The position numbers and the translations under genes were made by a program. A DNA stretch of 64,000 nt, from IMG/VR virus record IMGVR_UViG_3300045049_000270. The stretch is one strand, 5' to 3'. Positions 17,688-38,317 of this stretch are shown here, one piece after another. The DNA is from a virus. Lineage: Duplodnaviria > Heunggongvirae > Uroviricota > Caudoviricetes. How positions within the stretch are numbered: the stretch's first letter is position 1; every line of letters begins with the position of its first letter. Below the pieces are notes generated by a model. That model saw only the letters and a program-made list of their open reading frames with translations, was not told where the DNA came from and did no database searches.

Positions 17688-17692
17688 ACTCT

Positions 17693-17750
17693 CGCAATCA
17701 TGTTCAACTGATACATTCATTTTAACATGGTAAACAACCACAAGGAGATA
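17693..17750 (+). promoter_or_regulatory. family-P promoter cassette (weak -35)
   Basis: TCGCAA-N17-ATTCAT; CATGTTCAACTGA spacer; AACATGGTAAACAACCACAAGGAG. Confidence 0.5.
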
Positions 17751-17753
17751 AAG

Positions 17754-18086
17754 ATGAGTCGCAATGGTGTTGCTCTGCTTCCCGCTACGAGCTGCCTGTT
17801 CAATGCAAACAAGATTCCGCTGTCTCGCCTCAATGAAGTGTGGGACAAGAACACCGTATACGTTGGCCGGAACGATCAAGACAAGGTTGTGTTTTTCGTA
17901 AGCTCTGGGCGCCTTAGTAATAAATTCAAGGTTGGCACAAATCACCGTATTCAGCATGATCAAACTGGTGCCAGCTATGGTTATTACGAGATCGTCAACA
18001 TCATCGACGTAGAAAACGGCCAGGTAATCAACAAAGAAAATCATCTGTACCTTAGCTCTAAAGCACCCGTCTGGGTCTTTAAGTGA
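17754..18086 (+). CDS. hypothetical protein
   Basis: family-P promoter at 17693; AAGGAGATAAAG then ATG MSRNGVAL. Confidence 0.45.
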   Translation: MSRNGVALLPATSCLFNANKIPLSRLNEVWDKNTVYVGRNDQDKVVFFVSSGRLSNKFKVGTNHRIQHDQTGASYGYYEIVNIIDVENGQVINKENHLYLSSKAPVWVFK

Positions 18087-18103
18087 GCATTTAACGGAAC
18101 GTA

Positions 18104-18137
18104 CACGGCCACCGAAAGGTGGCCGTTGCTCATTTGG
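18104..18137 (+). terminator. probable terminator hairpin
   Basis: ACGGCCACC-GAAA-GGTGGCCGT then TGCTCATTT. Confidence 0.5.
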
Positions 18138-18140
18138 TCC

Positions 18141-18196
18141 TTTACTGTTGATGTATTTGAGTATACCATATGAACATGACAAACGAAGGGAGATTG
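18141..18196 (+). promoter_or_regulatory. family-P variant promoter
   Basis: TTTACT-N17-TACCAT; ATGAACATGACAAACGAAGGGAG. Confidence 0.4.
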
Positions 18197-18198
18197 TG

Positions 18199-18411
18199 AT
18201 GAAGACAATAGATGGTTATGAAATTGTGACCGAAGACACAACTGCTATTCTTGAAGAATGTGATAAGGCTTATCTACTGCGTTCATGCACTCCTTACACC
18301 AATACTAGCCTAGTAATGTGGTTCAGGGTGAGCAACAAGAAGGGTGACGATTACGGAGTTTTCAAGACTGAAGCAGAAGCACGTGACGCCTACAATCGTA
18401 TAACTGCATAA
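18199..18411 (+). CDS. hypothetical protein
   Basis: variant promoter at 18141; GGGAG RBS; ATG MKTIDGYEIV. Confidence 0.45.
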   Translation: MKTIDGYEIVTEDTTAILEECDKAYLLRSCTPYTNTSLVMWFRVSNKKGDDYGVFKTEAEARDAYNRITA

Positions 18412-18523
18412 GGAGAAGCAATGAGCACGTGAAAAGTTGATGCAACTTATTGCCAAATACATCAAGTAACACTTGATGCCAAAATTGGCAAGTACTATTA
18501 TGAGGGACATGGCAATTCCTTAG

Positions 18524-18814
18524 GTGAAAAACGTGTCCCTCAATCTCAATGCTTGCCCCAACTGCAAGAATACCCAAACGATTCATATACATCAAATTGG
18601 CAAATTCTTTGCCAAGTGCCATTATTGCGGGCATCAAGCGGCTCCTCACGAAACTCAGATTGGTGCTGCTGCAAATTGGAACGGTGTCGAATACAAAAAC
18701 TCTCCTCTCGAAGATGCCATCATCACAGTGAAACTGATGCGTGGCTCTGATCAAATGCTTTCGGACGAATTTCTCAAAGCACTCGACGTGATTTTAAACG
18801 AAGTAACCAAATAA
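18524..18814 (+). CDS. zinc-ribbon protein
   Basis: CPNCKN...CHYCGH (two CxxC pairs); GTG start. Confidence 0.45.
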   Translation: MKNVSLNLNACPNCKNTQTIHIHQIGKFFAKCHYCGHQAAPHETQIGAAANWNGVEYKNSPLEDAIITVKLMRGSDQMLSDEFLKALDVILNEVTK

Positions 18815-18831
18815 CCTTGTGGTTATGAAGA

Positions 18832-18865
18832 AAAAGCCGTACCATATGGCTTTTCGATCTTTTTA
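18832..18865 (+). terminator. rho-independent terminator
   Basis: AAAAGCCGTA-CCATA-TGGCTTTT followed by CGATCTTTTT. Confidence 0.65.
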
Positions 18866-18875
18866 AAGAATATTC

Positions 18876-19091
18876 ATGAAACGATTTCTTGCTGTGCTTT
18901 TGAAGCTGTTTGCTACTGTTGCCTTCGCACGAGGGGGTGGCGGAGGTGGAGGTCATGGTGGCGGTGGCCATGCCTCTGCTGAGGGTCATAGCATTAATGG
19001 CGTTGATATTTGTGCTTGGGTGATTGTAATTATTGCAATGATTTCCGCTGTTGTTCTCGTCATTATGTTTTTTGTGATGCTTTTTGGTTGA
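18876..19091 (+). CDS. small secreted/membrane peptide with Gly/His-rich segment
   Basis: signal-like N-terminus; GGGGGGGHGGGGH; C-terminal TM helix. Confidence 0.4.
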   Translation: MKRFLAVLLKLFATVAFARGGGGGGGHGGGGHASAEGHSINGVDICAWVIVIIAMISAVVLVIMFFVMLFG

Positions 19092-19146
19092 CTCCATATT
19101 CATTTGAAGATACAATATGAATATGGCAACTATTTGAGAGGACAGG
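19087..19146 (+). promoter_or_regulatory. family-P promoter cassette
   Basis: TTGACT-N17-TACAAT; CCATATTCATTTGAAGA / ATGAATATGG inverted repeat. Confidence 0.55.
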
Positions 19147-19270
19147 ATGGAAGGTTATGCAAGCAAAGCATTGACTGGTTTGTCGGTGATCGGCGCGACA
19201 GACCATTCAAACTGTTGCACTTATCGTTGCCGGTCATTTTGATCTCCAGATCAAATGTGCAGTCTTTGGC

Positions 19271-19585
19271 ATGAAAGACAAATTTCAATCACCTGCAACT
19301 GAAGCTGATCTCGAAACTCCTGAGGTACTTGCAGGGCTCGAGCGAATCAAAAATCACTTCCGTGGTGTTGTACAAGAAATATTTCGCACGGCTGATGAAG
19401 CAGATCGACAAGCAGATCAGGCTCGGCACCAAGAAATGCTGAATCAGATGCGCAAGAATCAACAACCTCACGAGATGGGAACTGTTGCTGAAATTGCTGC
19501 GAAGTATGGCATCTCCAAGAGTGAAGTTCGACGTCGTAAGGCTGACGGTACGCTTGAAGCGTTAAAGTTGATGGATTCGCAATGA
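19271..19585 (+). CDS. hypothetical protein (104 aa)
   Basis: ORF with charged, helical composition. Confidence 0.45.
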   Translation: MKDKFQSPATEADLETPEVLAGLERIKNHFRGVVQEIFRTADEADRQADQARHQEMLNQMRKNQQPHEMGTVAEIAAKYGISKSEVRRRKADGTLEALKLMDSQ

Positions 19586-19759
19586 AGGTTCGAGTTCGGC
19601 GGCTCTGCTACAAGACAATGTATCTCAACGGTCCATGGGGTTATGGGCGTCGTGTGCTTGGTAAGCACACGATTTTGCAAGCGTTTGATGCAGGGCACGA
19701 CGATCATAGCTGCTTGATTGAATACATGATCGCTAGGTTCAAATAGTAACTGATTGGTC

Positions 19760-19818
19760 TTGACACCAAATTCAGATGAGCACACAATAAGCATACGGTA
19801 AACAACAACAGGAGAACG
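19760..19818 (+). promoter_or_regulatory. family-P promoter cassette upstream of WGR paralog 3
   Basis: TTGACA-N17-CACAAT; AATTCAGATGAGCA spacer; ACGGTAAACAACAACAGGAG. Confidence 0.55.
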
Positions 19819-19821
19819 GAA

Positions 19822-20373
19822 TTGAGTAACTTGGTCATTCTTAAAGTTGGTCATGCCTTCATCAAGGGTAAGTTTGCTAACGACAAGCCGAAAAAGGATT
19901 CTCTCTGGGGGCTGATGCGCACTGATGAGGCAGTCATCAAGTTCTTCGGGCGGCGCGGCGGATCGATTAGGTTCAAACAAGAACCGATCAGCGAGCTCGA
20001 AGCAGCGCTCAAGCTGTACCAGCAGAAGCTAGATGGCACTGATGCAAAGAAGCTGAAGCACGATGATCTCGATGCCGACAAGCAGGCTGAGCTGCTTGGG
20101 GCCAACTTTTCGCAAGAACTTTGCGAAAAGTATGAAGCAGCACTTGCTGAAGGCAAGATCGACTACCGCATTGCGAAGGTCGATGACGAAGCTGATGGCG
20201 AAGTTGCGGAGCCGAAGGCTGAGGAACCGAAAGCAGCTGGCAAAGCTAAGGGAAAACCCAAGGCCGAATCAAAGGCTCCCGAAACGCCACCGGCTCAGAC
20301 TGCGCCAACCAACACGACTCCTTTTAGCTGGCCGTACCCAACGACCACTATTCCCTCCAGCACACAAGAGTAA
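19822..20373 (+). CDS. WGR-domain-like protein, paralog 3, with Glu/Lys/Pro-rich tail
   Basis: KKDSLWGLMRTDEAVIKFFGRRGGSIRFKQ...YQQKLDG; TTG start after AGGAGA RBS; family-P promoter at 19760. Confidence 0.55.
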   Translation: MSNLVILKVGHAFIKGKFANDKPKKDSLWGLMRTDEAVIKFFGRRGGSIRFKQEPISELEAALKLYQQKLDGTDAKKLKHDDLDADKQAELLGANFSQELCEKYEAALAEGKIDYRIAKVDDEADGEVAEPKAEEPKAAGKAKGKPKAESKAPETPPAQTAPTNTTPFSWPYPTTTIPSSTQE

Positions 20374-20383
20374 TAATTCTCAA

Positions 20384-20424
20384 TGATGATAGCCAGGGCA
20401 GATGCCCTGGCTATCATCATTTCC
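20384..20424 (+). terminator. long terminator hairpin (weak U-tract)
   Basis: GATGATAGCCAGGG-CAGAT-GCCCTGGCTATCATC then ATTTCC. Confidence 0.5.
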
Positions 20425-20449
20425 ACTTCATGAAAAAATCATTATTCAT

Positions 20450-20508
20450 TTGATACTTTAACCAAATGAATGTATTATTTGATACATGGTAAACAAACAC
20501 AAGGAGTT
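20450..20508 (+). promoter_or_regulatory. family-P promoter cassette
   Basis: TTGATA-N17-TATTAT; AACCAAATGAATG / TTGATACATGGTAAACAAACACAAGGAG. Confidence 0.6.
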
Positions 20509-20512
20509 GAAA

Positions 20513-20764
20513 ATGGCAAAGACTACGATGCAACAATTGCTCCGTGCTCACATGATCGGCGGCGTTCTTAATGGTAGTTATCCTGGTGCAAGCGATGCCC
20601 AGAACTGGGATCAATACATTGCAGAGCACTTCGATATGAACGATCCCGAAGTGGTGAAATTCCTAACTGAATGGAAGCTCTTTATCGATGCAAGCGAGCG
20701 ATTTAACTCGATATTGAATGAGCAAATGGTTCAAAGCGGGATCAACGTCAACAACCTTTTGTAA
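20513..20764 (+). CDS. hypothetical protein
   Basis: family-P promoter at 20450; AAGGAG RBS; ATG MAKTTMQQ. Confidence 0.45.
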   Translation: MAKTTMQQLLRAHMIGGVLNGSYPGASDAQNWDQYIAEHFDMNDPEVVKFLTEWKLFIDASERFNSILNEQMVQSGINVNNLL

Positions 20765-20780
20765 ACAAACGGAGAGAACA

Positions 20781-21056
20781 ATGAAATTGAACATGATTGC
20801 TGTTATTCGCGATGTCAATCACCGCTTTGACGGTAAAATCAAACACGTTGTTGGTCCCGACTGCGATACGATGCAGGAAGAAGAGTGCTTTGACATGATC
20901 GTGAAGTTTATGATCGAAGTGCTGGGAGTTGATCTCGCTGAGCACGAACTAGCCGATGAGCTTGAAGAAGATGAAGTGACCGTTAGTATTGATGGTGATC
21001 ATGCATATTGCTTCGATGAAATGACTGGCAACATGTACACTTTTTATTTGAGCTAA
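20781..21056 (+). CDS. hypothetical protein
   Basis: ACGGAGAGAACA then ATG MKLNMIAV. Confidence 0.45.
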   Translation: MKLNMIAVIRDVNHRFDGKIKHVVGPDCDTMQEEECFDMIVKFMIEVLGVDLAEHELADELEEDEVTVSIDGDHAYCFDEMTGNMYTFYLS

Positions 21057-21075
21057 AGCAAAAACGCAAATAAAC

Positions 21076-21105
21076 AAAAAGCCACGTGGAGGTGGCTTTT
21101 TGTTT
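21076..21105 (+). terminator. rho-independent terminator
   Basis: AAAAGCCAC-GTGGAG-GTGGCTTTTTGTTT. Confidence 0.7.
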
Positions 21106-21137
21106 ATGGAGGAAGGAATAACCATATCAAATAATGC

Positions 21138-21188
21138 TTGCACTGTAGCCAAATGAATGTATAATTTGATATATGGTAAATGACAAGG
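21138..21188 (+). promoter_or_regulatory. family-P promoter cassette
   Basis: TTGCAC-N16-TATAAT; CCAAATGAATG / TTGATATATGGTAAATGACAAGGAG. Confidence 0.6.
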
Positions 21189-21190
21189 AG

Positions 21191-21910
21191 ATGATCTTGC
21201 AAACGACCGCAGAGATTATGGCACGCTTGATTGAACTTGGTTATACGTATTCTAGCGTTGAAACAACTGCTGCCAATATATTGCTTGCGAAAGGAGCAAT
21301 GTTTGAAATTGATAAGTCGATTTATGTACCGTACACTAGGGCGAATTATGAATTTGAAAACAAGGGCCGTAAGATCAACCTGAAAGTATATTACAAGGTT
21401 TATGGGGGCGGGCTTCGGGCTGCTGAAAACATCTTTCGCATTGAGTTGGTTGGATTTAATGGTGTTGATCCCGACTCGATTAGTCAAAACATGATCTCGC
21501 CATCACACAACCCCAAGCGTTTCAAACTCGCCATTGGCGAAAGCGAATGGAATACGTTTGAAACAAAGCTAATCGAGCGCCTTGCGGATTGGGAAACATA
21601 TGCTACTCGAGTTGTTATCAACAATGAAAATGCTCGAACAAAGTTTATTGCTGAACATGGAACTGACGAAGAACGAGCTGAAAAGGCAAAGCAGGAAAAA
21701 GAACAGCAAAACCGAGAACGCGTGGCTTTCAATGAACAAGTCAAACAGCGCATTTTCGAGAAGACTGGCCTGACGCGACACCGCAAGCGTGAGATGATCT
21801 TTGAAATTGCATGCAATATTCGGCACGCATCTAAGCATCTCTACAAGATCGATGACTACACGGAAAAGCAGCTGATTACGATCATAAAGAAGATGTTGCT
21901 TGTCATGTAA
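21191..21910 (+). CDS. hypothetical protein (239 aa)
   Basis: family-P promoter at 21138 (-10 TATAAT); AAGGAG RBS. Confidence 0.5.
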   Translation: MILQTTAEIMARLIELGYTYSSVETTAANILLAKGAMFEIDKSIYVPYTRANYEFENKGRKINLKVYYKVYGGGLRAAENIFRIELVGFNGVDPDSISQNMISPSHNPKRFKLAIGESEWNTFETKLIERLADWETYATRVVINNENARTKFIAEHGTDEERAEKAKQEKEQQNRERVAFNEQVKQRIFEKTGLTRHRKREMIFEIACNIRHASKHLYKIDDYTEKQLITIIKKMLLVM

Positions 21911-21938
21911 AAGAATGATAACCACATTCAAAAAGTGC

Positions 21939-21995
21939 TTGCGAAGGTGGTTAGGTGAATTTATCATTTGAACATGGTAAACAAACAAGGAGAAT
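21939..21995 (+). promoter_or_regulatory. family-P promoter cassette
   Basis: TTGCGA-N17-TATCAT; TTGAACATGGTAAACAAACAAGGAGAATAAAGATG. Confidence 0.6.
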
Positions 21996-24919: not shown

Positions 24920-25312
24920 ATGAATAATTTAGCTATTCGACCCCCACACGGTTTTCCTATGAACACCAAGACCGATGGGAAAGGTCTTTGGTCCAAGGTT
25001 GCACGTGATGTCAACATCGTTCGACTTGAAGTAGCTTATGTGGATCACGAGTCCAAGTTTGCGTCGGTGAACGCTTACTTTGATCCTAACACCTGGGATA
25101 TTGACGACGGCATCATCTACACTGATGACACGTGGTTAGCAACATTTCGGCGGGCACTCATTGCTCAATGTTATGTTCCGGCTGACGTTGCTGCGGCGAT
25201 TAGCTATTCCGAAATGGGTATGCAAGGCCCAGACTATGTCAACCTCGATTGTGGTGCGGCCTTTTACCATTATCTGTTTGGTGGCAGCATGCTTTCTCAT
25301 GAAGACGCTTAG
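24920..25312 (+). CDS. hypothetical protein
   Basis: ORF of 130 aa. Confidence 0.45.
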   Translation: MNNLAIRPPHGFPMNTKTDGKGLWSKVARDVNIVRLEVAYVDHESKFASVNAYFDPNTWDIDDGIIYTDDTWLATFRRALIAQCYVPADVAAAISYSEMGMQGPDYVNLDCGAAFYHYLFGGSMLSHEDA

Positions 25313-25616
25313 TGAAACATTAAACGAATTTTATGGCTGCAAACCTACACAGTGGAGCAGCCGTGACTACGAAGAGGAAAATTTCTGCAAAGACATCAAG
25401 AACCTTCCCTTCAAGCCAAAAGCATTCGTCGTGTTTTCCGAGACACATCGCAAGCGCCGCTCCGACTACGTTCAGAGCATACATGAATGGTGTGGCAATA
25501 ATGTGCGTGGTGCGTTTGCTGCGTTTTTGACATCGGAAGTCAAGTCTCCAATTTATGAGCTGTGGTGCTTTCAAGATGAAGCAGACGCAGCCATATTCAA
25601 ACTAACATGGTGCTGA
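25299..25616 (+). CDS. LTWG-family paralog
   Basis: C-terminus LWCFQDEADAAIFKLTWC; ATG overlaps the upstream gene's 3' end by 14 nt in another frame. Confidence 0.5.
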   Translation: MKTLSETLNEFYGCKPTQWSSRDYEEENFCKDIKNLPFKPKAFVVFSETHRKRRSDYVQSIHEWCGNNVRGAFAAFLTSEVKSPIYELWCFQDEADAAIFKLTWC

Positions 25617-25861
25617 AGATTTGATCCATATTTAAAATAATCGTACATAGAATGATAGGGGGTTTATATGTACGATTTGTTGATTGGGTTACTGTTCGGT
25701 ACCGGTTTTGTTGTTTTTATGCTAATTCCCTTGATGGTGAAAAACATGAAATATGAGTTTCCTGCCTCAAGAGAACATGAATTTTACGGCCGTTGAAAAC
25801 GCTTTACTTCTTGCTCATTTGAATTTACCATAAGAATATGGTAAATGAATAGGGAGTTCGT

Positions 25862-26155
25862 ATGGTGCTAGTATTCATTAAGGTTTCGGACGGGCAAGTG
25901 GGCCCTGGCGGCGCTCATGACTTTGTGGGTACAGTGAGCAGCATCGACCCTAAAGATGTGCGAAAACTGCTTATTGACTGGCTCGGAAACGATTTCAGAA
26001 TGCAGCAGCAAGGTAGGTATGAAACTTTGTATTTGTCTGCTATTAGCAACGAAGGCGTGCGTTACGGCGCCACCCTGTGGGCTTTCAATGATCGTATCGA
26101 GCATCTTAGTTCAACTGAGCTAGAAGATATTGGTGACTTGAGCGGCCCTTACTAA
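25862..26155 (+). CDS. hypothetical protein
   Basis: variant promoter at 25803; GGGAG RBS. Confidence 0.45.
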   Translation: MVLVFIKVSDGQVGPGGAHDFVGTVSSIDPKDVRKLLIDWLGNDFRMQQQGRYETLYLSAISNEGVRYGATLWAFNDRIEHLSSTELEDIGDLSGPY

Positions 26156-26160
26156 AAACC

Positions 26161-26215
26161 TTGCAACCAGGTTCAGATGATCTTATCATAAGAACATGGT
26201 TAAAACAAGGGAGAA
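26161..26215 (+). promoter_or_regulatory. family-P promoter cassette
   Basis: TTGCAA-N17-TATCAT; CCAGGTTCAGATGATC; AAGAACATGGTTAAAACAAGGGAG. Confidence 0.6.
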
Positions 26216-26219
26216 GCAA

Positions 26220-26507
26220 ATGTCGATTGGCGCACTGATCAAAGACAACGGTTTCAAGTACGATCCATCGAGCAGTGGTTGGAGGGGCTTTTATTCGATT
26301 GCTGGTTACGTGCCGAAAGCTGCACTGGTCAGAAAAGGCGTAGATGGATACTTCGAAGTGCATTGTGATCGTGACTTTGACACGAAAGTGACGACGTACA
26401 CTTGCAAGGGTAGTATCAAGCGCAAGGATGGCACGATCAAACAGATCAACATGACGAGCACGGACGAGACCGTGATAAAAGAGAAGCTGAAAGAATTGTT
26501 TGCGTAA
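26220..26507 (+). CDS. hypothetical protein
   Basis: family-P promoter at 26161; GGGAGAAGCAA then ATG. Confidence 0.45.
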   Translation: MSIGALIKDNGFKYDPSSSGWRGFYSIAGYVPKAALVRKGVDGYFEVHCDRDFDTKVTTYTCKGSIKRKDGTIKQINMTSTDETVIKEKLKELFA

Positions 26508-26522
26508 AACAAAGCAGGAATC

Positions 26523-26548
26523 AAAAGGGCCACAACCGTGGCCCTTTT
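26523..26548 (+). terminator. rho-independent terminator
   Basis: AAAAGGGCCAC-AAC-CGTGGCCCTTTTG. Confidence 0.7.
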
Positions 26549-26604
26549 GCCATTCGCAACACAAAACATGATGCGAAAAAGAATGTCAAAGCCTCATTTA
26601 GTGC

Positions 26605-26683
26605 TTGACGTGAGCATCAAATGAACGTATTATTTGATACATGGTAAGCAGTGAAGACAACGCAACAAACTTTACAGGAGATC
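26605..26683 (+). promoter_or_regulatory. family-P promoter cassette (long leader) upstream of WGR paralog 4
   Basis: TTGACG-N17-TATTAT; CATCAAATGAACG; TTGATACATGGTAAGCAG ... CAGGAG. Confidence 0.55.
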
Positions 26684-26686
26684 GAA

Positions 26687-27046
26687 ATGGCAAATGTCGA
26701 AATCATCAAGTTTGGTCACTTCTACAACGAAGGTGCTCGTGGTGAAGCAGGTGGCGCGGCAAGCAATGATAAGATCTGGGGTGTGGCAAAGATCGACGGC
26801 AAGTTGGTCAACTTCTGGGGCCGCCGCAACGGCAAGCTGAAGTTCAAGACGCGTTATCTCAGCGAGATGGGTAAGGTCATGGAAAAGTGGGCCGAAAAGA
26901 TTGGTGGCCGCACTGATGGTGGCGATGTCTATACTCCGATTCTCTCGGCAACGATGCAAATGACGCTGTGCCCGCGTCTCGTACAAGATGTCACGAAGCA
27001 CTTCTATATCGATCTTGCAAAGGGCAAGGTTAATACGAATCACTAA
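26687..27046 (+). CDS. WGR-domain-like protein, paralog 4
   Basis: MANVEIIKFGHFYNEG...SNDKIWGVAKIDGKLVNFWGRRNGKLKFKT; family-P promoter at 26605. Confidence 0.55.
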   Translation: MANVEIIKFGHFYNEGARGEAGGAASNDKIWGVAKIDGKLVNFWGRRNGKLKFKTRYLSEMGKVMEKWAEKIGGRTDGGDVYTPILSATMQMTLCPRLVQDVTKHFYIDLAKGKVNTNH

Positions 27047-27082
27047 ACCAGAATTGGCATTAACCCACCAAACGGTGCTACA

Positions 27083-27110
27083 ATAAGGGGAACAGCGTTC
27101 CCCTTATTTC
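27083..27110 (+). terminator. rho-independent terminator
   Basis: ATAAGGGGAAC-AGC-GTTCCCCTTATTTC. Confidence 0.7.
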
Positions 27111-27112
27111 AT

Positions 27113-27376
27113 ATGCAATTGATCATCATGACCGTTCACGACTTCATTACTGAGCAAAATCAGGAAGTTCGGCGTCGCGTCTACAACAAACTCAAATTCA
27201 CACCAGCTTGTGTGCTGCGTACCAAAGGAGTGGCGGCTTCTGCCCTGGTGCGCGAAAACCTAGAGTGGTTCATTAAAAATACGGCTGGAGCTTGTTTTCA
27301 ACCAATATTTTGTAATGCCATTTATTTTGAATCTATGGCAGATGCAATTGCTTGTAAATTGGCGCTAGAAAAATGA
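27113..27376 (+). CDS. LTWG-family paralog (divergent)
   Basis: C-terminus AIYFESMADAIACKLALEK. Confidence 0.4.
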   Translation: MQLIIMTVHDFITEQNQEVRRRVYNKLKFTPACVLRTKGVAASALVRENLEWFIKNTAGACFQPIFCNAIYFESMADAIACKLALEK

Positions 27377-27723
27377 AAACACTTCACGACGTTATTAGTG
27401 AGCATTATAATGCTAGGGATGATGTCCAAAAGAAAGAAGCCGATCGAGACCATATTATCAAGTTGTTTGAAACAAAAGTGAATATGTTTGATTATAATCC
27501 AACAGCATTTTTCATTTTTAATTTCAGGCATCTTGAAAAAATCATGTCCGAACGTAAAAAATTCGATGGTTCAATTATGAATTGGCTTCATCAAAACATG
27601 AGTGGTCGGTTTTCAGTATTAAGAATCGAGCAAGCAACAGAACGGATTGGCTCTGGTATTTCAAGGTTGCTGTGTTTCCAGAATGAACATGATGCTGTTT
27701 TATTCAAACTAACTTGGTGCTGA
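27373..27723 (+). CDS. LTWG-family paralog
   Basis: C-terminus LLCFQNEHDAVLFKLTWC; ATGA overlap. Confidence 0.5.
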   Translation: MKTLHDVISEHYNARDDVQKKEADRDHIIKLFETKVNMFDYNPTAFFIFNFRHLEKIMSERKKFDGSIMNWLHQNMSGRFSVLRIEQATERIGSGISRLLCFQNEHDAVLFKLTWC

Positions 27724-27724
27724 T

Positions 27725-28066
27725 ATGAAATATGATGAATTGATGAAAATGGCAATTGATCGGGCGATCAATGAAACTAAAACTAGAGTTGAGCATTCAA
27801 CTGCTCACTCATTTGAGGGACCAAATGTTGAATATTTTGTTATTCAAAGCTATGAAGCGTATGATCGGATGACAGACGAATTGAAAACTGACCAGGCAAA
27901 TGGCTTACGCTATTTTTCGAAACACGATATCGTTCGCTGGTCCGATGATTACGGTGCTATCGTTGAAGTGGCAAATCCTGATATCCTATTCGGTTTAAAG
28001 TGTCGCCTTTGGGGATTTGAACGAGAAACCGACGCTATTGGCTTCAGACTCACCTGGTGTGCTTGA
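27725..28066 (+). CDS. LTWG-family paralog
   Basis: C-terminus LWGFERETDAIGFRLTWC. Confidence 0.5.
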   Translation: MKYDELMKMAIDRAINETKTRVEHSTAHSFEGPNVEYFVIQSYEAYDRMTDELKTDQANGLRYFSKHDIVRWSDDYGAIVEVANPDILFGLKCRLWGFERETDAIGFRLTWCA

Positions 28067-28118
28067 TTTTGCCTTCATATGAAGCTATCATTTGGTTAGA
28101 TAGATGATAGCAGGAGAT
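28064..28118 (+). promoter_or_regulatory. family-P promoter cassette
   Basis: TTGATT-N16-TATCAT; CTTCATATGAAGC spacer. Confidence 0.5.
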
Positions 28119-28122
28119 TAAC

Positions 28123-28440
28123 ATGAAGCGTAGTCAAGTGCAAAAGCTTGAAGCAGTGCTCGAAAACGCGAAAATCCCGAACGCCTTTTGGCCAGGAATC
28201 ATTCGAGGCGTTGACGATCTCGAGTTTGTTCCTGATGGCTACGTGGTGCTTACCAACATTCATCGAGACAACTTCCGCTCGAAAGGCTACAAAACAAAAG
28301 ACTTGGATGAATGGCTTGATAATAATACTAGCGGGCAGTTTGGTGCTATTGTCACTTCAGCACCTGGCATAAATGCAATCTGGTGTTTCGAGGACCTTGG
28401 TGATGCAGCAATGTTCAAGCTCATGTACGGTGTTGAATAA
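28123..28440 (+). CDS. LTWG-family paralog
   Basis: C-terminus IWCFEDLGDAAMFKLMYG; family-P promoter at 28064. Confidence 0.5.
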   Translation: MKRSQVQKLEAVLENAKIPNAFWPGIIRGVDDLEFVPDGYVVLTNIHRDNFRSKGYKTKDLDEWLDNNTSGQFGAIVTSAPGINAIWCFEDLGDAAMFKLMYGVE

Positions 28441-28715
28441 TGAAATACAGTACATGGCTTGCTGAAATGTCGGATGTTGATCGGATGGTCTGGCATTTTC
28501 ATTTTAAAGATTTCAAATGGCCCATCAACTTCGTAGTACAGTGCCGTCCGCCCAAAACGGCTGGTGAAGTATTCGAGCGATATACTTGGTTGGATGAAAA
28601 TGTAGATTCTCCCTATACGTGGGAAGAACAGCTAGTGCCACCGGGCTTGTATTACTTTTTCGAAAATGAGATGGAAGCATTGCAGTTCAAACTAACGTAT
28701 GGATATGAACACTGA
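28440..28715 (+). CDS. LTWG-family paralog
   Basis: C-terminus YYFFENEMEALQFKLTYG; TAATG overlap. Confidence 0.5.
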   Translation: MKYSTWLAEMSDVDRMVWHFHFKDFKWPINFVVQCRPPKTAGEVFERYTWLDENVDSPYTWEEQLVPPGLYYFFENEMEALQFKLTYGYEH

Positions 28716-28987
28716 TGAATGCCATTGAATGGGTTGAATTACTGCAATCGTTGGACAGGAAATCAACCGATAGTAGTGAAGTGATGCTCAAACGATTGTT
28801 TCCGTTCAAGTTCAAACTCATGCGCAATACAACTGAGCAAAAGCAGCTCATAGCTGAAGCTACAGATTGGTTGCTGAACAATGCCACCAGCGATGAATAT
28901 GTGTGGTTGGCATCAACCGTTCACTTCAAAGATGATGTTGTAGCAATGCAGTTTAGGCTAACATTCACCGACATAGTCAGCAGTTGA
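28715..28987 (+). CDS. LTWG-family paralog
   Basis: C-terminus STVHFKDDVVAMQFRLTF; ATGA-type overlap. Confidence 0.45.
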   Translation: MNAIEWVELLQSLDRKSTDSSEVMLKRLFPFKFKLMRNTTEQKQLIAEATDWLLNNATSDEYVWLASTVHFKDDVVAMQFRLTFTDIVSS

Positions 28988-29042
28988 CTGTGAATTCAAA
29001 TGAGCGCATCATAGCATTTTCTATAAACGAAATAAGAAGACA

Positions 29043-29495
29043 ATGAACTTTAAATCACCTAAGTATGCTCGATTGACGACTCTTCCGATTGATTTGGTGA
29101 TTCTTGCTATTAAAGAGCAGGAAGGAGTTCGTTCTAATTCGCGTGTCGAACTAGGCGGTGTAATGGTCAAGCTTTCTAGTTTGCGTCTACGTTGTTTCGC
29201 AAACAAAGGTACAATCTGTGAGTATTGCAAATTGCCAGCCCAATATTTTGCAGTTGAGCGCAGTCTTGCAGATGAAGAAAAAGGCCGACCCTACCATATC
29301 AACCTATGGGGTATTGGTCCTGATGGCGAAGAGGTTCTATTCACGCATGATCATGTTCTAGCCCGTGCTCTTGGTGGGGCTCCAAATGACTTGGAGAATG
29401 CAGTAACTAGCTGTGGTCCATGTAATTGGAGAAAAGGTCTAGAAGAACAAAAACTAGTAGAAAAACTGAGTGAGAATAATGAGCAAACGGATTGA
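29043..29495 (+). CDS. HNH endonuclease
   Basis: CEYCK...FTHDHVLARALGGAPNDLENAVTSCGPCNWRKG (HNH with zinc ligands). Confidence 0.7.
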   Translation: MNFKSPKYARLTTLPIDLVILAIKEQEGVRSNSRVELGGVMVKLSSLRLRCFANKGTICEYCKLPAQYFAVERSLADEEKGRPYHINLWGIGPDGEEVLFTHDHVLARALGGAPNDLENAVTSCGPCNWRKGLEEQKLVEKLSENNEQTD

Positions 29496-29706
29496 AATTT
29501 ACGGTAAGTTTTATCGCAAACGTCGCGGGAAGCTGGTTGAGATTCCTACCGAATGGGTTGGTAAGGTAACGCATCCTCAGACTATTCGAAACCGTCCAAG
29601 CAAACTGATCAACAAACGCAAGCGAGATGCCAACGGTGGTAGTTCCGCAAAGTTTTGGTCAGCCACGGAATTCAAAGATCAACGTGATTTTCCTATTGAG
29701 GATTGA
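29479..29706 (+). CDS. hypothetical basic protein
   Basis: overlaps the HNH gene's 3' end; Lys/Arg-rich. Confidence 0.4.
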   Translation: MSKRIEIYGKFYRKRRGKLVEIPTEWVGKVTHPQTIRNRPSKLINKRKRDANGGSSAKFWSATEFKDQRDFPIED

Positions 29707-29708
29707 AT

Positions 29709-30011
29709 ATGAGCGACATTCAAGAACAGAAGTGGGCACCTCATGAGAAGGTATTGGTGCTTTACTACAATGCCAAAACATCTGGTAAATTCAACAAAAG
29801 GTTTGCAAATGAACTAAATCAACTTCCTCTGCCTGAATGCCAGGAGGCTATTCAAGCAGCATTCAATGTGCTTGGTTTTTCACGTGACATCGAAATGATC
29901 ACTGATGATCGAACACTGTTTGGCTGGGTGATGGCTACTGCTCTTGGTGCAAGCTGGAATCCTGATGCAAACAAATACCAAACGCGAGAAGAACGTCTCG
30001 ATTATTTGTGA
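29709..30011 (+). CDS. hypothetical protein
   Basis: ATG 3 nt after the upstream stop. Confidence 0.45.
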   Translation: MSDIQEQKWAPHEKVLVLYYNAKTSGKFNKRFANELNQLPLPECQEAIQAAFNVLGFSRDIEMITDDRTLFGWVMATALGASWNPDANKYQTREERLDYL

Positions 30012-30018
30012 AAAAATG

Positions 30019-30078
30019 TTGATTCGACCACCAAGTGAACTTACCATCTGAGCATGGTAAGCAAACACAAGGAGAGTT
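30019..30078 (+). promoter_or_regulatory. family-P promoter cassette
   Basis: TTGATT-N17-TACCAT; CTGAGCATGGTAAGCAAACACAAGGAG. Confidence 0.55.
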
Positions 30079-30081
30079 TAA

Positions 30082-30480
30082 ATGGGTCTCAAAGCATTCG
30101 ATTACTACAAAACAGTGCCGATGGCTTACCCGCGCCGTTCAGATTACACGAAGGTTTTCGTATACAGAAAGGGTAAAACGATCGTAAATGGCATCAAACG
30201 CAGTGAAATAGACGGAAATGCGATTAAGGAATATCGCGATACTGGTTGCCTTATCGAAGAAACCTTCGATAAGGATGCCTTCTTCGTAGATACTCGTGCT
30301 TACAGTAATCTGTGTAGTGAACTGGAAAAAGAATTCAAGCGTGATCTGTTCGATCAGCATGGAGTGACAGGCCACCCCAAAGCAGAACGCGCATTTCAAC
30401 TTGCTTGGGATTACGGCCATAGCTCTGGATTCCAAGAAGTAGCGAACTATTTCGACGATCTTGCTGATCTGCTGAAATAA
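30082..30480 (+). CDS. hypothetical protein (132 aa)
   Basis: family-P promoter at 30019; AAGGAG RBS; terminator at 30497. Confidence 0.5.
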   Translation: MGLKAFDYYKTVPMAYPRRSDYTKVFVYRKGKTIVNGIKRSEIDGNAIKEYRDTGCLIEETFDKDAFFVDTRAYSNLCSELEKEFKRDLFDQHGVTGHPKAERAFQLAWDYGHSSGFQEVANYFDDLADLLK

Positions 30481-30496
30481 GCGACAAATGCAATAC

Positions 30497-30535
30497 ACTG
30501 AAGGCCTCACAATTGTGAGGCCTTCAGTCATTTGA
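30497..30535 (+). terminator. rho-independent terminator
   Basis: ACTGAAGGCCTCACAATTGTGAGGCCTTCAGT then CATTTG. Confidence 0.6.
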
Positions 30536-30538
30536 TAC

Positions 30539-30596
30539 TTGATGTCATCACCAAATGAACTTACACTAAGAGCATGGTGAATCAAAACAGGAGGAC
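30539..30596 (+). promoter_or_regulatory. family-P promoter cassette
   Basis: TTGATG-N17-TACACT; CACCAAATGAACT; AGAGCATGGTGAATCAAAACAGGAGG. Confidence 0.5.
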
Positions 30597-30599
30597 AAG

Positions 30600-30791
30600 A
30601 TGACTAAGAGGATTATGGAAGCAGTCAAGCGTAATCAGCTTTACAAATCGGCTGACGGCTATGTGCTCGAGCGAAACCTTGAAGACGATTGGATCCTTCG
30701 TGATGCCAATGGCAAGGAACTAGATCGTGGTGGTTGGCGTAACGATATAGCAGAGCGGCATAACCTAGTACTGAAACCCTATTGCATTTAA
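30600..30791 (+). CDS. hypothetical protein (63 aa)
   Basis: family-P promoter at 30539; AGGAGG RBS. Confidence 0.4.
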   Translation: MTKRIMEAVKRNQLYKSADGYVLERNLEDDWILRDANGKELDRGGWRNDIAERHNLVLKPYCI

Positions 30792-30794
30792 TGC

Positions 30795-30850
30795 TTGCAT
30801 TATGAACCAAATGAATGCAAAATAGGAACATGGTAAACGACAAGGAGCAA
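30795..30850 (+). promoter_or_regulatory. family-P promoter cassette
   Basis: TTGCAT-N17-CAAAAT; AACCAAATGAATG; GGAACATGGTAAACGACAAGGAG. Confidence 0.55.
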
Positions 30851-30853
30851 GCA

Positions 30854-31504
30854 ATGGCACAAACTAATGTAGAACTGTTCGTCGTTGGCGCAGAAATCGA
30901 TCTTAAAGATGCTAGTCAAGCAAAGAAATTTGGTCGTTCGCGCATCATCAACATCGAACGTGCTCCTCGCAGTGCAAATACCACATTCCACTTCGAATCA
31001 GTTGCAACTGGCAAAGCGTGGCACTGGAAATTCCGTGATTACCTGGATGGTGCTTGCAATCGACTTGCGACATATGCCAGTGTTGTAAAAAAAGCTACAG
31101 CTGAAACTGTGAAGAAAGCTGCTGACAAACAACGTGATCTGTACGAGCGTGATTTTGCATCATTCAAAAACGTGATTTTGGAACAGAACGTCCAACCCGG
31201 CGACACGGTTACGGTCACAACTCCTGACAAGAGCTACGACTTCAACGTGTGCGAGATTGATTTCGGCAAAAGTCGATTGAGAGGGTTCAATGTCAACACA
31301 TCGTACACCAGCGTCGGATCACGTATGGGGTGGGTAAGCTTCAAACACCCGGACGTTAAAATCAAGATGAAGAAAAAGAACGCATTCAACGTTAGCTTGG
31401 ATGCTTGCTATAACGCGCACAAGGCTGCGGCCGCTGAAGTTGGTGAAAAGCGGGCTAATACACGTGCTCGCCGAAAGCAGCTACGAGATCGTTTTGGATG
31501 GTAA
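30854..31504 (+). CDS. hypothetical protein (216 aa)
   Basis: family-P promoter at 30795; AAGGAG RBS; terminator at 31515. Confidence 0.5.
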   Translation: MAQTNVELFVVGAEIDLKDASQAKKFGRSRIINIERAPRSANTTFHFESVATGKAWHWKFRDYLDGACNRLATYASVVKKATAETVKKAADKQRDLYERDFASFKNVILEQNVQPGDTVTVTTPDKSYDFNVCEIDFGKSRLRGFNVNTSYTSVGSRMGWVSFKHPDVKIKMKKKNAFNVSLDACYNAHKAAAAEVGEKRANTRARRKQLRDRFGW

Positions 31505-31514
31505 GCGAAAGTTT

Positions 31515-31543
31515 TGAGGAAAAACGGTTCCGTTTTTCCTCAT
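31515..31543 (+). terminator. rho-independent terminator
   Basis: GAGGAAAAACGG-TTC-CGTTTTTCCTC. Confidence 0.65.
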
Positions 31544-31586
31544 CATCATAGTATAATTGGCGCACCAAACAACCTATGGGGGTTAA

Positions 31587-32417
31587 ATGAAACGTACTAT
31601 TGGCTTTATTGTTGCACTCGCTATTGGTGCAATGTTGATGACGAGTGGTTGCACTCGCATTGAATCAGGCAATGTCGGCATTGTCAAACATTGGGGCGGC
31701 AAAATCGATCCTGAAGTGTTGGAACCTGGTTTCCATTTCATGATTTTCGATTCGCTGCTCGCAGAAGTTGATGCAACTCCTACACGAGTGGCAGTGAATA
31801 ATCTCACACCGAAAGATGCTGACGGCGTACCAGTTGACGATCTGGATATCGTTGTAACATATAAACTCAATGCACCATATGTATCAAAGTTCTATACTGG
31901 AACACATGAACTGGATACGTACAAAGATGGTAGTGGGCGTGAATACACTACTATTGGGCTTGAAGCTATCAAGCAATTGGCTCCTGGTGTTATGCAAACC
32001 GCAACGGAAACCGATGACCCTGTTGCTATTGCGAAGAATACGCAATTGTATGATGCGAAAGCTTCTGCTGAATTCAAACGTGTGCTTGATGCACGATATC
32101 CAAATGCGTTCGATTCAGTATCAGTGCTCACATTACATTTCAAATTGCCCGATTCTATTCAACAACAAGTGAATGCAGTAGCGGCATTTAATGCTGAAGC
32201 AGAACGCAACAAGGCTGAATTGGCGTTGATTGCACAACGCAAGGAACTTGCGAGCAAGAAAGCAACCGTAGACGCTGAGGCGCTTCGTGCCGCTGCTGAT
32301 GCTGCCCACCTCACACCCGAAGAGGTGATTGCGTGGCGCAACGCCAATGCCGCTCAGACCCAAGCTGAAAATATCGGTGGTGTTGCAAAAGTGATCGATG
32401 TAAGTACCAAGAAATAA
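31587..32417 (+). CDS. SPFH/band-7 domain lipoprotein
   Basis: lipobox LMTSGC; SPFH-like SGNVGIVKHWGG...LEPGFHF...DLDIVVTYKLN; Ala-rich coiled-coil C-terminus. Confidence 0.6.
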   Translation: MKRTIGFIVALAIGAMLMTSGCTRIESGNVGIVKHWGGKIDPEVLEPGFHFMIFDSLLAEVDATPTRVAVNNLTPKDADGVPVDDLDIVVTYKLNAPYVSKFYTGTHELDTYKDGSGREYTTIGLEAIKQLAPGVMQTATETDDPVAIAKNTQLYDAKASAEFKRVLDARYPNAFDSVSVLTLHFKLPDSIQQQVNAVAAFNAEAERNKAELALIAQRKELASKKATVDAEALRAAADAAHLTPEEVIAWRNANAAQTQAENIGGVAKVIDVSTKK

Positions 32418-32432
32418 CGTAGTAGTCCTGTT

Positions 32433-32470
32433 AGTGGTAGGGTGAGGATCCTCACCCTACCACTCATTTG
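32433..32470 (+). terminator. rho-independent terminator
   Basis: GTGGTAGGGTGAGGATCCTCACCCTACCAC then TCATTTG. Confidence 0.6.
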
Positions 32471-32474
32471 GTCG

Positions 32475-32535
32475 TTGACAATTCATTCATATGAATGCAG
32501 AATACGATACATGGTAGACACAACAGGAGAATAGT
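32475..32535 (+). promoter_or_regulatory. family-P promoter cassette
   Basis: TTGACA-N17-CAGAAT; TTCATTCATATGAATG palindrome; GATACATGGTAGACACAACAGGAG. Confidence 0.55.
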
Positions 32536-34176: not shown

Positions 34177-34410
34177 ATGCGAGCACGTGAACATCGTGGT
34201 GGATTGGCCGAATCACTGGCTACGGTCTTCAATTTCGAAACGAAGGAAGACTTGTTGACGGAAATTAACGAACGCATGGGGACACATTTTTGCCATGACG
34301 ACATTGCATTCCTTCATCAAGGAAAAGATGAACGCATTGGTTGGGATACTTACTTGGTGAGTGTGCGTGGCTATGGTGTGTTCGGATATACAGATGGGAT
34401 ACCAAAATAA
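34177..34410 (+). CDS. hypothetical protein (77 aa)
   Basis: AGAGGG RBS then ATG; stop overlaps the tpt1 start (ATAATG). Confidence 0.4.
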   Translation: MRAREHRGGLAESLATVFNFETKEDLLTEINERMGTHFCHDDIAFLHQGKDERIGWDTYLVSVRGYGVFGYTDGIPK

Positions 34411-34958
34411 TGAATGAAGACTTCAATAAAAAGTACAAAAAGCATAGTATTTGGTTGTCGTACTTGCTGCGACATGGTGCGAAAGAACAAAAAGTCAAAA
34501 TTGACAAACAAGCATTCATCCTAGTAGACGATGTGATAGCGGCGGGCAAGAAAGCAGGTTATGAATTTGATCTTGAAATCCTGAAAGGAATTGTTGCTAA
34601 CGATCAGAAGGGCCGTTATTCATTCAATGAAGACTTCACCAAAATTCGGGCAAACCAAGGACATTCCATTAATGTTGATCCTGGGTTGCAAAAAGCAGTG
34701 CCGCCAGTGATCTTGTATCACGGCACTTCAAGCGAAGCTTGGGAGATCATCAAGAAGAAAGGTCTCAATAAGATGACACGCACTCACGTTCATCTCACTG
34801 CTGACATTGAACTGGCTCGGAAACGGTTTCGAAAAACTGTAGTAATCGAAGTTGACTCTAAAGCTATGCTGGCTGATAAAGTTGATTTCTACAAGTCAGC
34901 AAATGATGTGTGGCTGGTTGATGCCGTAGATGCAAAGTATCTGAAGCTTGTGGAATGA
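34410..34958 (+). CDS. kptA: RNA 2'-phosphotransferase (Tpt1/KptA)
   Basis: near-collinear with E. coli KptA: WLSYLLRHG, GRYSF...IRANQGHS, VILYHGTSSEAWEIIKKKGL, RTHVHLTAD, NDVWLVD. Confidence 0.8.
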   Translation: MNEDFNKKYKKHSIWLSYLLRHGAKEQKVKIDKQAFILVDDVIAAGKKAGYEFDLEILKGIVANDQKGRYSFNEDFTKIRANQGHSINVDPGLQKAVPPVILYHGTSSEAWEIIKKKGLNKMTRTHVHLTADIELARKRFRKTVVIEVDSKAMLADKVDFYKSANDVWLVDAVDAKYLKLVE

Positions 34959-35030: not shown

Positions 35031-35402
35031 ATGTCCACAACGATCAAAGATTTCGGTCGCCACAGCGAACGTTTCGGTGACATCAGCCACTACTACGCAT
35101 TTCCTGTGCGTTTCTGGTTTGGCAACAGCCAGCTCACACCGGAAGATGTGTTGACGTGGCTGCGTGAAAATGCAAAGGGCTACTACAAGGTGGTGTGCTA
35201 CACGCACAAGGATTCCACGCGCGTCAAGGGTCGGCCGAAGGAATTCGAAAACCAGATCATCTACGTCGACAAAGTGTACTTGTCGAGCGAAGAAGACGCT
35301 GCGAAGATCAAGTTGTCGTTCGATGTTCGCGACGTGAAGGTCAAGCGTCCTCGTATCGCGGCGCGCCGCAAGAAAGTCAAGACCTACAAGACGAAGAAGT
35401 AA
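35031..35402 (+). CDS. hypothetical protein with Lys/Arg-rich C-terminal tail
   Basis: family-P promoter at 34966; GAGGAGGG RBS; tail KRPRIAARRKKVKTYKTKK. Confidence 0.45.
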   Translation: MSTTIKDFGRHSERFGDISHYYAFPVRFWFGNSQLTPEDVLTWLRENAKGYYKVVCYTHKDSTRVKGRPKEFENQIIYVDKVYLSSEEDAAKIKLSFDVRDVKVKRPRIAARRKKVKTYKTKK

Positions 35403-38036: not shown

Positions 38037-38309
38037 TTGGACAGCTATGAATTAGTGTATCCAGCCGCAATACCAGTGAAAGTGCATAAAGGTGGGCGAT
38101 TTGTGTTTGCCCGAAGCGTTGCTATCTTTGTATTGAATATGTTGCAGGAAGATGTAGACGAAGATGAGCAACTTGAATACACCACAATGGATAACGTAGA
38201 ACTAGGTGAATGTCTCCTTGCGGCAGGAGCCATACATGATAGTGTATTCGGTGGAGTTGTCGTTGATGGTGCTCCAAACGGTTTCATTCAAGCAGTTCAA
38301 ATAACATAG
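38037..38309 (+). CDS. hypothetical protein, paralog pair member 1
   Basis: VYPAAIPVKV...GGVVVDGAPNGF parallels the downstream gene. Confidence 0.4.
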   Translation: MDSYELVYPAAIPVKVHKGGRFVFARSVAIFVLNMLQEDVDEDEQLEYTTMDNVELGECLLAAGAIHDSVFGGVVVDGAPNGFIQAVQIT

Positions 38310-38317
38310 GTGATACT

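Follow-up and report, generated by a model that had tools for sequence, protein, structure and literature searches.

Why does a phage carry six small, related genes in a row, and what might their products do? The question is raised by positions 27,113 to 28,987 of a 64,000-nucleotide (nt) stretch of tailed-phage DNA (Caudoviricetes; IMG/VR record IMGVR_UViG_3300045049_000270), which as a whole we call the window. A sequence-only reading of the window had described these genes (array B, copies B1 to B6) as a second tandem array of the family that forms array A further upstream, and had taken recurrent duplication and the nearness of homing endonucleases to suggest an actively shuffled accessory locus. 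We find that the array-B genes are best read as ancient, strongly diverged paralogues, members of a large family that appears to be undescribed and uncatalogued. We regard the existence of this family, its habit of forming arrays and its mode of evolution as nearly certain. Our reading of its function is tentative: with a probability of about 0.45, the proteins are diversified non-enzymatic binders used in conflict between phage and host.

All six array-B open reading frames (ORFs) are present on the plus strand (Table 1), and the C-termini quoted for them earlier are correct. Adjacent genes are tightly joined. Stop and start codons share an ATGA with a 4-nt overlap between B1 and B2 (27373/27376), are separated by one nucleotide in the TGA-T-ATG between B2 and B3 (27723/27725), and overlap by 1 nt both in the TAATG of B4/B5 (28440) and in the TGATG of B5/B6 (28715). 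The B3/B4 junction (28066/28123) has a 56-nt spacer containing AGGAG. Because copies of a promoter/leader cassette, described below, precede the WGR-like gene just upstream of the array, B4, and the HNH gene just downstream, array B reads as two operons, B4-B6 and B1-B3, the latter reached by read-through past a hairpin at 27087-27102. The cassette at 26605-26650 probably drives the WGR-like gene and, by read-through, B1-B3, and the hairpin is a possible attenuator.

A profile built from the copies and iterated over all ORFs of the window converged on 15 members, with the next ORF many orders of magnitude away. A hidden Markov model (HMM) of 112 sequences foreign to the window plus the copy at 27373 matched all 15 of these clear copies (E 1e-16 to 4e-7), including the six of array B (2e-16 to 4e-7). 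It also matched a divergent copy at 35031-35402 (E 2e-4), the next, unrelated ORF standing at 0.1. The window total is thus 16 copies: a pair (6922-7531), array A, a solo copy (25299-25616) that lies 1.5 kb upstream of array B and is the nearest paralogue of B2 and B4, array B, and the divergent copy. That array B is a second array of array A's family was borne out, and the profile comparison that had been put forward as able to refute it did not do so. An HMM made from array A only recovered every array-B copy (2e-8 to 7e-3; best non-member 0.26), and a profile-profile comparison of the two arrays with hhalign gave 96.4% probability (E 1.4e-9) over 71 columns. With an HMM made from array B only, six of the eight A-side copies outranked every other ORF (3e-9 to 2e-3), and those at 13494 (0.029) and 14363 (0.28) were not significant. 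Judged by these profile comparisons, the similarity among the copies is far beyond chance.

Members carry the signature [YF]-x-V ... W-[CL]-x-[ED]-N-x-x-G-x-[YWF] ... F-E-[ND]-E-x-D-A-x-x-F-K-L-[TR]-W-[GCS] in a C-terminal domain, the protein ending about 0-10 residues from the L-T-W position. The array-B copies conform, B1 (KLALEK) and B6 (RLTFTD) being the most degenerate at the motif. Conserved columns across the family are W, N, G, F, D, A, F, L and W, and in an alignment of 174 members W reaches 97%, N 84%, F 98%, D 91%, A 97%, F 94% and L 87%. An AlphaFold2 model of B2 (predicted local distance difference test score 85, predicted template-modelling score 0.75) has an N-terminal helical hairpin followed by a beta-alpha-beta-beta-alpha core, and the domain is predicted to be a compact three-stranded beta-sheet packed on two helices, with no catalytic signature. 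Since the invariant residues are mostly hydrophobic or at positions expected of helix caps, what the members share appears to be a scaffold; free variation is seen in the N-terminal extension and in the beta2-beta3 loop. Cysteines are frequent, and a metal site was considered for them and rejected because L, I and V also occupy the Cys columns. The median isoelectric point (pI) of 5.3 indicates proteins that are neither DNA-mimic-like nor basic; the array-B copies range from pI 4.8 to 8.8, and net charge runs from -7.2 to +2.6 per ~100 amino acids (aa).

The 15 window copies had no match in Pfam-A, PHROGs v4, NCBIfam 20, PADLOC 2.0 or the PDB sequences, and 113 family members searched against the same collections gave isolated chance-level matches only. 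The one PHROG match was to an unannotated family, and weak matches in BFVD were all to uncharacterised proteins. A word-indexed protein search returned self or near-self matches only, and the family emerged with an exhaustive HMMER profile search of 1.84 billion cluster representatives, which gave 439 family representatives at the 50% identity level (E <= 1e-3). Most of these are 60-110 aa long, and some are tandem two-domain fusions or have N-terminal transmembrane helices; the ten longest family members, scanned against Pfam, contained no known domain and no enzyme fusion. A search of the literature, by sequence motif and for accounts of the family, turned up nothing relevant.

Several copies, mostly adjacent, were found on every unrelated contig that we opened: six in 8.7 kb next to T4 gp13 (L005), 14 in 3.7 kb of a 369-kb contig (L007), 16 in L009 and five in L010. 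Among 50,697 GenBank phage records, megablast found no nucleotide match for 27000-29100 and tblastn found nothing for B2. Tblastn with the family consensus had a single match in GenBank phage records, the cultured Sinorhizobium jumbo phage Phosso (PV764938; 469 kb). The two stretches of its genome that were examined hold at least 11 copies, each annotated as a "hypothetical protein"; gp475, gp476, gp478 and gp479 are among the Phosso copies, as are several at 105-129 kb. A degenerate DNA motif located 109 stretches in IMG/VR, and the 80 loci fetched, all true by HMM, hold 303 copies in 673 kb. Sixty of these loci are multi-copy, 69% of the copies have a same-strand neighbour copy no more than 150 nt away, and 15 copies in 6 kb make up the largest array. 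The sampled parts of one 416,714-bp contig contain at least 39 copies. As against the 109 stretches in IMG/VR, the motif located 13 in 596 Gb of bacterial and archaeal genomes, of which about five are true (in Allosphingosinicella, Novosphingobium, Rhizobium, a metagenome-assembled genome and Paraburkholderia sp. IW21). By this measure the family appears to be almost exclusively phage-borne. In the Paraburkholderia locus (L020; contig4, NZ_JBGGWA010000004.1), positions 4158-5846 hold four copies as two divergent pairs between two HNH-type endonuclease genes, and the contig also encodes a WGR-like homologue (P0236); the region is probably a prophage or the relic of a related phage.

The copies of the window are old. 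Core domains of the window copies are 11-38% identical, and they do not cluster by array, identity being 20.4% within arrays and 21.0% between them (permutation p 0.71). At the DNA level the window copies share no repeats except one 52-nt stretch coding the C-terminal motif. Recent local duplication was rejected because DNA repeats are missing and within-array identity is not above between-array identity, and the earlier claim of recurrent duplication, taken as an ongoing local process, is not supported on the same evidence. Several copies are nearer to other phages' proteins than to their paralogues in the window: those at 13160 (68%), 28123 (66%), 25299 (54%) and 6922 (44%).

Comparison with other phages gives a different picture at short and at long distance. 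Across the six genes of array B, the difference from two close strains (L001 and L002) amounts to 13 nt and 4 aa, which implies purifying selection and no ongoing rearrangement; nine of the 13 substitutions between close strains are synonymous. A more distant 523,837-bp phage, hereafter the relative, has neighbouring genes that are mostly 58-88% identical to those of the window (median 73%), and at the array-B site, between the same flanking genes, it has five copies where the window has six. The order there is the WGR-like gene (84%), an unmatched copy, the orthologues of B1, of the solo copy (54%) and of B4, and a distant counterpart of B6 (identities in Table 1), followed directly by the orthologue of 30082-30480. 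The relative thus lacks orthologues of B2, B3 and B5, has one extra copy instead, and carries the orthologue of the solo copy inside its array B. Array A and the 6922 pair likewise show a mix of retained and replaced members. Family orthologues in the relative are 35-68% identical to the window copies, with a median of 56% as compared with 73% for neighbouring genes (Mann-Whitney p 0.003), and in L010 identity falls from 65-67% in the flanking genes to 26-31% in the four array copies. The earlier description of an actively shuffled accessory locus therefore stands in part: the region has been reshuffled between related phages, as copy number and the lower conservation of orthologues show, but the near-invariance of array B in close strains does not support current activity.

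The differences between the window and the close strains are bounded by promoter cassettes, not by the HNH gene. The motif CAWATGAAYGTAYNAT occurs 40 times in the window, against 1.8 expected, with 37 occurrences on the plus strand. The cassette is intergenic, about 65 nt long, and has the short consensus CTTGA-N17-TAtcAT-...ATGGTAAAC...GGAG; in full it is gCTTGA(c), 17 nt, TAtcAT, tTGAacATGGTAAAC, aaGGAG, and the part downstream of the -10 box TAtcAT is TGAacATGGTAAAC followed by AGGAG. Its 17-nt spacer often holds a 12-nt palindrome (for example GTTCATATGAAC), and in many cassettes an inverted repeat straddles the -10 box (for example CCATGTTCA...TGAACATGG), suggesting an operator for a dimeric regulator. 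The last codons of B3 at 28052-28066 (…TGG TGT GCT TGA, W-C-A-stop) make up the GCTTGA -35 box of the next cassette.

Two mosaic segments place the breakpoints at cassettes. One is a gene cassette, consisting of a promoter and a 103-aa ORF (26196-26507), which is present in the window and missing from the otherwise ~99% identical L001 and L002, where a hairpin and ~170 nt of non-coding DNA take its place (L001 9110-9230). Both of its breakpoints, 26172 and ~26602, fall within promoter cassettes. The other is a block at ~30000-32490 that is 65-90% identical to L001 and L002 between flanks of 99-100%; its position between the cassettes at 30032 and 32488 points to recombinational replacement.

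Table 1. Positions of the array-B genes, of the other family copies and of further features in the window.
Feature	Position	Strand	Details
Copy B1	27113-27376	+	87 aa; C-terminus ...YFESMADAIACKLALEK; orthologue in the relative 59% identical
Copy B2	27373-27723	+	116 aa; C-terminus ...LLCFQNEHDAVLFKLTWC; without orthologue in the relative; structure modelled
Copy B3	27725-28066	+	113 aa; C-terminus ...LWGFERETDAIGFRLTWCA; without orthologue in the relative
Copy B4	28123-28440	+	105 aa; C-terminus ...IWCFEDLGDAAMFKLMYGVE; orthologue in the relative 66% identical
Copy B5	28440-28715	+	91 aa; C-terminus ...YFFENEMEALQFKLTYGYEH; without orthologue in the relative
Copy B6	28715-28987	+	90 aa; C-terminus ...HFKDDVVAMQFRLTFTDIVSS; nearest copy in the relative 35% identical
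Pair of copies	6922-7531	+	6922-7212 and 7205-7531
Array A, six copies	12631-14623	+	12631-12906, 13160-13483, 13494-13766, 13735-14058, 14062-14361, 14363-14623
Unrelated 65-aa ORF inside array A span	12966-13163		
Solo copy	25299-25616	+	105 aa from ATG 25299; longest ORF from 25161; C-terminus ...LWCFQDEADAAIFKLTWC
Divergent 16th copy	35031-35402	+	motifs W-L-x-E-N-x-x-G and E-D-A-x-x-I-K-L; basic C-terminal tail
Putative promoter/leader cassette 1	26605-26650	+	-35 TTGACG, 17 nt, -10 TATTAT; motif CAAATGAACGTATTAT with 0 mismatches; downstream box ACATGGTAAGC
Putative promoter/leader cassette 2, before B4	28063-28122	+	TTGATT, 17 nt, TATCAT; 12-nt palindrome CTTCATATGAAG; AGGAG
Putative promoter cassette 3, before HNH gene	28984-29042	+	TTGACT, 17 nt, CATCAT
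Example positions of cassettes	5676, 12351, 12916, 20463, 21150, 26618, 28076, 28997, 30032, 32488, 58810	+	
GC-rich hairpin	27087-27102	+	GGGGAACAGCGTTCCC, then a T-rich tail; between WGR-like gene and B1
WGR-like gene	26687-27046	+	directly upstream of array B; longest ORF from GTG 26651; AGGAG before ATG 26687
WGR-like paralogue	14774-15169	+	directly after array A
WGR-like paralogue	8018-8515		after the 6922/7205 pair
WGR-like paralogue	19822-20373		
HNH endonuclease gene	29043-29495	+	Pfam HNH 22.9 bits (cut-off 21.4); PHROG HNH families to 1e-8
Second, unrelated HNH gene	5250-5666		also absent in the relative, between the AdoMet decarboxylase gene and the next gene
RNA ligase-like gene	9561-10181		RLIG1, weak match
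Lar restriction-alleviation	18524-18814		weak match
Tpt1 RNA 2'-phosphotransferase gene	34341-34958		
tRNA-Val and tRNA-Pro	43308-43500		

In the mechanism that we favour, B1-B3 and B4-B6 would each form an operon behind a phage-specific sigma-70-like promoter/leader cassette, the genes inside each operon being translationally coupled through their overlapping or abutting stop and start codons. The products would present variable recognition surfaces, the N-terminal extension and the beta2-beta3 loop, on a common scaffold. They would be made early in infection, each paralogue recognising a different target in the host or in a rival element, and the outcome would be a diversified counter-defence, immunity-like or host-takeover repertoire. 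Large phages would keep such a repertoire in arrays that gain, lose and swap members in the course of evolution, with exchange by recombination at the repeated promoter cassettes that bound gene modules.

Early expression, binding and a role in conflict are each something that we infer. The sigma-70-like promoters suggest early expression. Non-enzymatic binders that act in conflict are favoured, further, by conserved residues that look structural, by variable N-termini and loops, by a moderate charge and by the absence of enzyme fusions. The same reading is favoured by copies that are under purifying selection yet diverge and turn over faster than their neighbours, by the near restriction of the family to phages, and by the presence of RNA-repair and restriction-alleviation types of gene in this region. 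Anti-defence genes are reported to be enriched in variable regions of large T4-like phages (PMC12028318).

Several observations weigh against these proposals. Array B is nearly invariant among close strains and the divergent sixteenth copy is 96% identical to its orthologue in the relative, so that not every copy is fast-evolving, and faster divergence where it does occur could reflect relaxed constraint, not an arms race. Homology assigns no function to any family member. The early timing is read from the sigma-70-like shape of the cassette, and the window contains neither late nor structural genes with which to compare it. In front of B1, a ribosome-binding site is not recognisable. Across the 80 IMG/VR loci no conserved partner gene was found, the commonest neighbour cluster occurring in only 12.

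Other functions have to be set beside this one. It is possible, if somewhat doubtful, that the family constitutes a viral "poly-immunity" inhibitor repertoire whose members neutralise different host defence effectors or toxins, host range being widened by cassette exchange. The strongest rival to binders in conflict, which we nevertheless consider unlikely, is that the copies serve the phage's own development as adaptors, chaperone-like factors or regulators of replication, transcription or assembly proteins, many paralogues being needed because giant phages have many client proteins. Copy number does appear high in very large genomes (at least 39 in the 417-kb contig and 16 in the 64-kb window), T4-type core genes (a UvsW-like helicase and gp13) adjoin arrays at several loci, some paralogue lineages have persisted in divergent phages at 54-68% identity and one at 96%, and the fold is generic and without catalytic residues. 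However, copy content that differs between close relatives and orthologues that outpace their neighbours in divergence are unusual for housekeeping genes, no conserved neighbouring client gene accompanies the copies, and the proteins are neither basic nor equipped with a DNA-binding motif. A weaker candidate, and a very improbable one, is a virion role as internal head, decoration or ejected proteins. The T4 internal proteins are known anti-restriction factors, the proteins studied here are small, numerous and mildly acidic, and one Phosso array adjoins a tail fibre gene, as the L005 array adjoins gp13; but signal and cleavage motifs are missing, the promoters are sigma-70-like and not late-type, most arrays lie among small accessory genes and not in structural modules, and no virion protein of known function is matched in PHROG or BFVD. 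The acidic median pI and the weak Lar-like gene in the region would also suit acidic DNA-mimic anti-restriction proteins of the Ocr, ArdA or Arn type. We rejected this identity on charge, which is only -7 to +3 per ~100 aa, with two array-B copies basic (pI 7.9 and 8.8), and there is no sequence match to such proteins, so that it ranks as the least credible of all.

The alternative that concerns the locus itself, not its products, is that it is duplicating now, with a homing endonuclease driving both duplication and shuffling. The HNH gene at 29043 is real and abuts array B, as had been reported, and 29043-29495 fits an HNH homing endonuclease by its motif and by its sporadic presence at a site conserved in the relative. 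A second HNH gene begins at 5250, 1.3 kb upstream of the 6922/7205 pair, and copy content varies between related phages. Against this stand the divergence of the paralogues with neither clustering by array nor DNA repeats, the essential identity of array B in three close strains, and the mapping of breakpoints to promoter cassettes. In addition, 29043-29495 forms, with 29470-30011, an insertion of ~1.1 kb that is not present at the orthologous site of the relative, the second gene is missing from its site there as well, the L010 array has no counterpart of the first, and neither gene has a homologue in the 80 IMG/VR loci. Both HNH genes are, by these comparisons, lineage-specific insertions. 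The link to a homing endonuclease is thus incidental, and the view of ongoing HNH-driven duplication is largely refuted and can be given little probability.

Tandem small-domain expansions in giant phages and cassette-shuffled hyperplastic regions are already known, the former from PMC7824862 and the latter from PMC2839356. In the hyperplastic regions of T4-type phages, modules lie behind PeSL (promoter-early stem-loop) cassettes and are shuffled there (Arbiol et al. 2010, PMC2839356; Comeau et al. 2014, PMC4122927). The window resembles those regions in its small genes clustered on one strand, in a repeated promoter cassette with an inverted repeat before modules, in insertion, deletion and replacement breakpoints within cassettes (here two segments, the 26172-26602 indel and the ~30000-32490 block), and in interspersed free-standing homing endonuclease genes. 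Unlike PeSL, the cassette sequence is specific to this phage lineage, and its inverted repeat straddles the -10 box where PeSL has an upstream terminator. The genome is also larger, a ~524-kb contig as compared with the 170-250 kb of T4-like phages, and the PeSL papers describe no single family amplified into arrays.

Amplification of one family has its own precedents. Lineage-specific expansions in jumbo phages are described by Iyer et al. (2021, PMC7824862), for example ~35 zinc ribbon copies in Bacillus phage G. As presented there, that case likewise involves a small domain in dozens of diverged copies per giant genome whose function is not established. The domain described here has no metal ligands, is unrelated in sequence, and has expanded in many unrelated phages and not in one genome; it is not mentioned in the passages of that paper on paralogs, expansions and tandem copies. 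The closest precedent in architecture is the poly-immunity loci of polymorphic toxin systems, with SUKH and other Imm families (Zhang et al. 2011, PMC3113570; 2012, PMC3482391), the analogy being one of shared architecture and not of family membership. There too, diverged paralogues of a small non-enzymatic alpha/beta domain form tandem arrays, and such domains have also been recruited by viruses, which offers "one scaffold, many targets" as a working model. Unlike those loci, array B has no adjacent toxin gene, its family does not match the Imm or SUKH Pfam models, and it is almost exclusively carried by phages. Anti-defence islands, such as anti-CRISPR loci and the Schizotequatrovirus islands (PMC12028318), are similar in that their variable regions hold small, fast-evolving genes whose folds are not assigned, in turnover between relatives and in counter-defence-type company. 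They differ in holding unrelated genes and not many paralogues of one family, and no Aca-type regulator was seen here.

Most genes of giant phages have no assigned function, and here a single recognisable domain accounts for at least 439 clusters at the 50% identity level. With a profile of the family, a visible share of the small genes that lack an assignment in jumbo and mega-phages would become annotated, and variable, probably host-interaction, regions of their genomes would be flagged. Since Phosso is cultured, the timing, partners and host-range effect of the family are directly testable. If the poly-immunity reading were true, hundreds of new anti-defence specificities would be gathered in one recognisable family. 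Through the cassettes that bound gene modules, the PeSL model, which concerns modular shuffling in T4-type phages, also comes to cover a phage of ~524 kb.

The WGR-like gene upstream of array B is one of four paralogues in the window. The WGR domain (Pfam PF05406) stayed below threshold in these genes, the best score being 16.2 bits against a cut-off of 22, for one paralogue only, and none of 105 WGR-like homologues has a precomputed Pfam domain. As a general neighbour of arrays the gene was rejected, since it is lineage-specific: it lies beside arrays in the window, in the relative and in L010, and in none of the 80 IMG/VR loci. When eight neighbours of array B were searched against Pfam, only the HNH gene had a recognisable domain, and the WGR-like gene and six small genes (24920-26507 and 29703-30480) had no significant match; an Imm family was matched by none of the eight.

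The window itself is an accessory region of a very large phage. Its encoded proteins are found in identical or near-identical form on metagenomic contigs of 218,697 and 523,572 bp, and window positions 4062-21991 are 100% identical to L006. Small genes are densely packed on one strand, together with two tRNAs and two HNH genes; other recognisable products are a radical-SAM protein, AdoMet decarboxylase, an RNA ligase-like protein, CoaE, a CoaD-like protein, an acyltransferase, a Band_7 protein and Tpt1. The RNA ligase-like gene, Tpt1, the weak Lar match and the tRNAs together lend the accessory region of array B a flavour of RNA repair and counter-defence. Four more pairs of paralogues, 27-36% identical, were found (52728-54117; 38037-38602; 40043-40654 and 41733-42329; 17727-18086 and 48345-48785), and gene duplication is therefore common across the region.

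At 10312-12059 a dephospho-CoA kinase gene (CoaE) lies beside a phosphopantetheine adenylyltransferase-like gene, a pair that corresponds to the final two steps of coenzyme A synthesis. The CoaE has a C-terminal extension of ~240 aa. The 305-aa protein encoded at 57303-58220 is 40-44% identical to proteins of the Ralstonia jumbo phages RP12, RP31 and phiRSL1 and of Achromobacter phage Motura, and some records of these homologues are annotated as TRAP-transporter solute-receptor-like or substrate-binding proteins.

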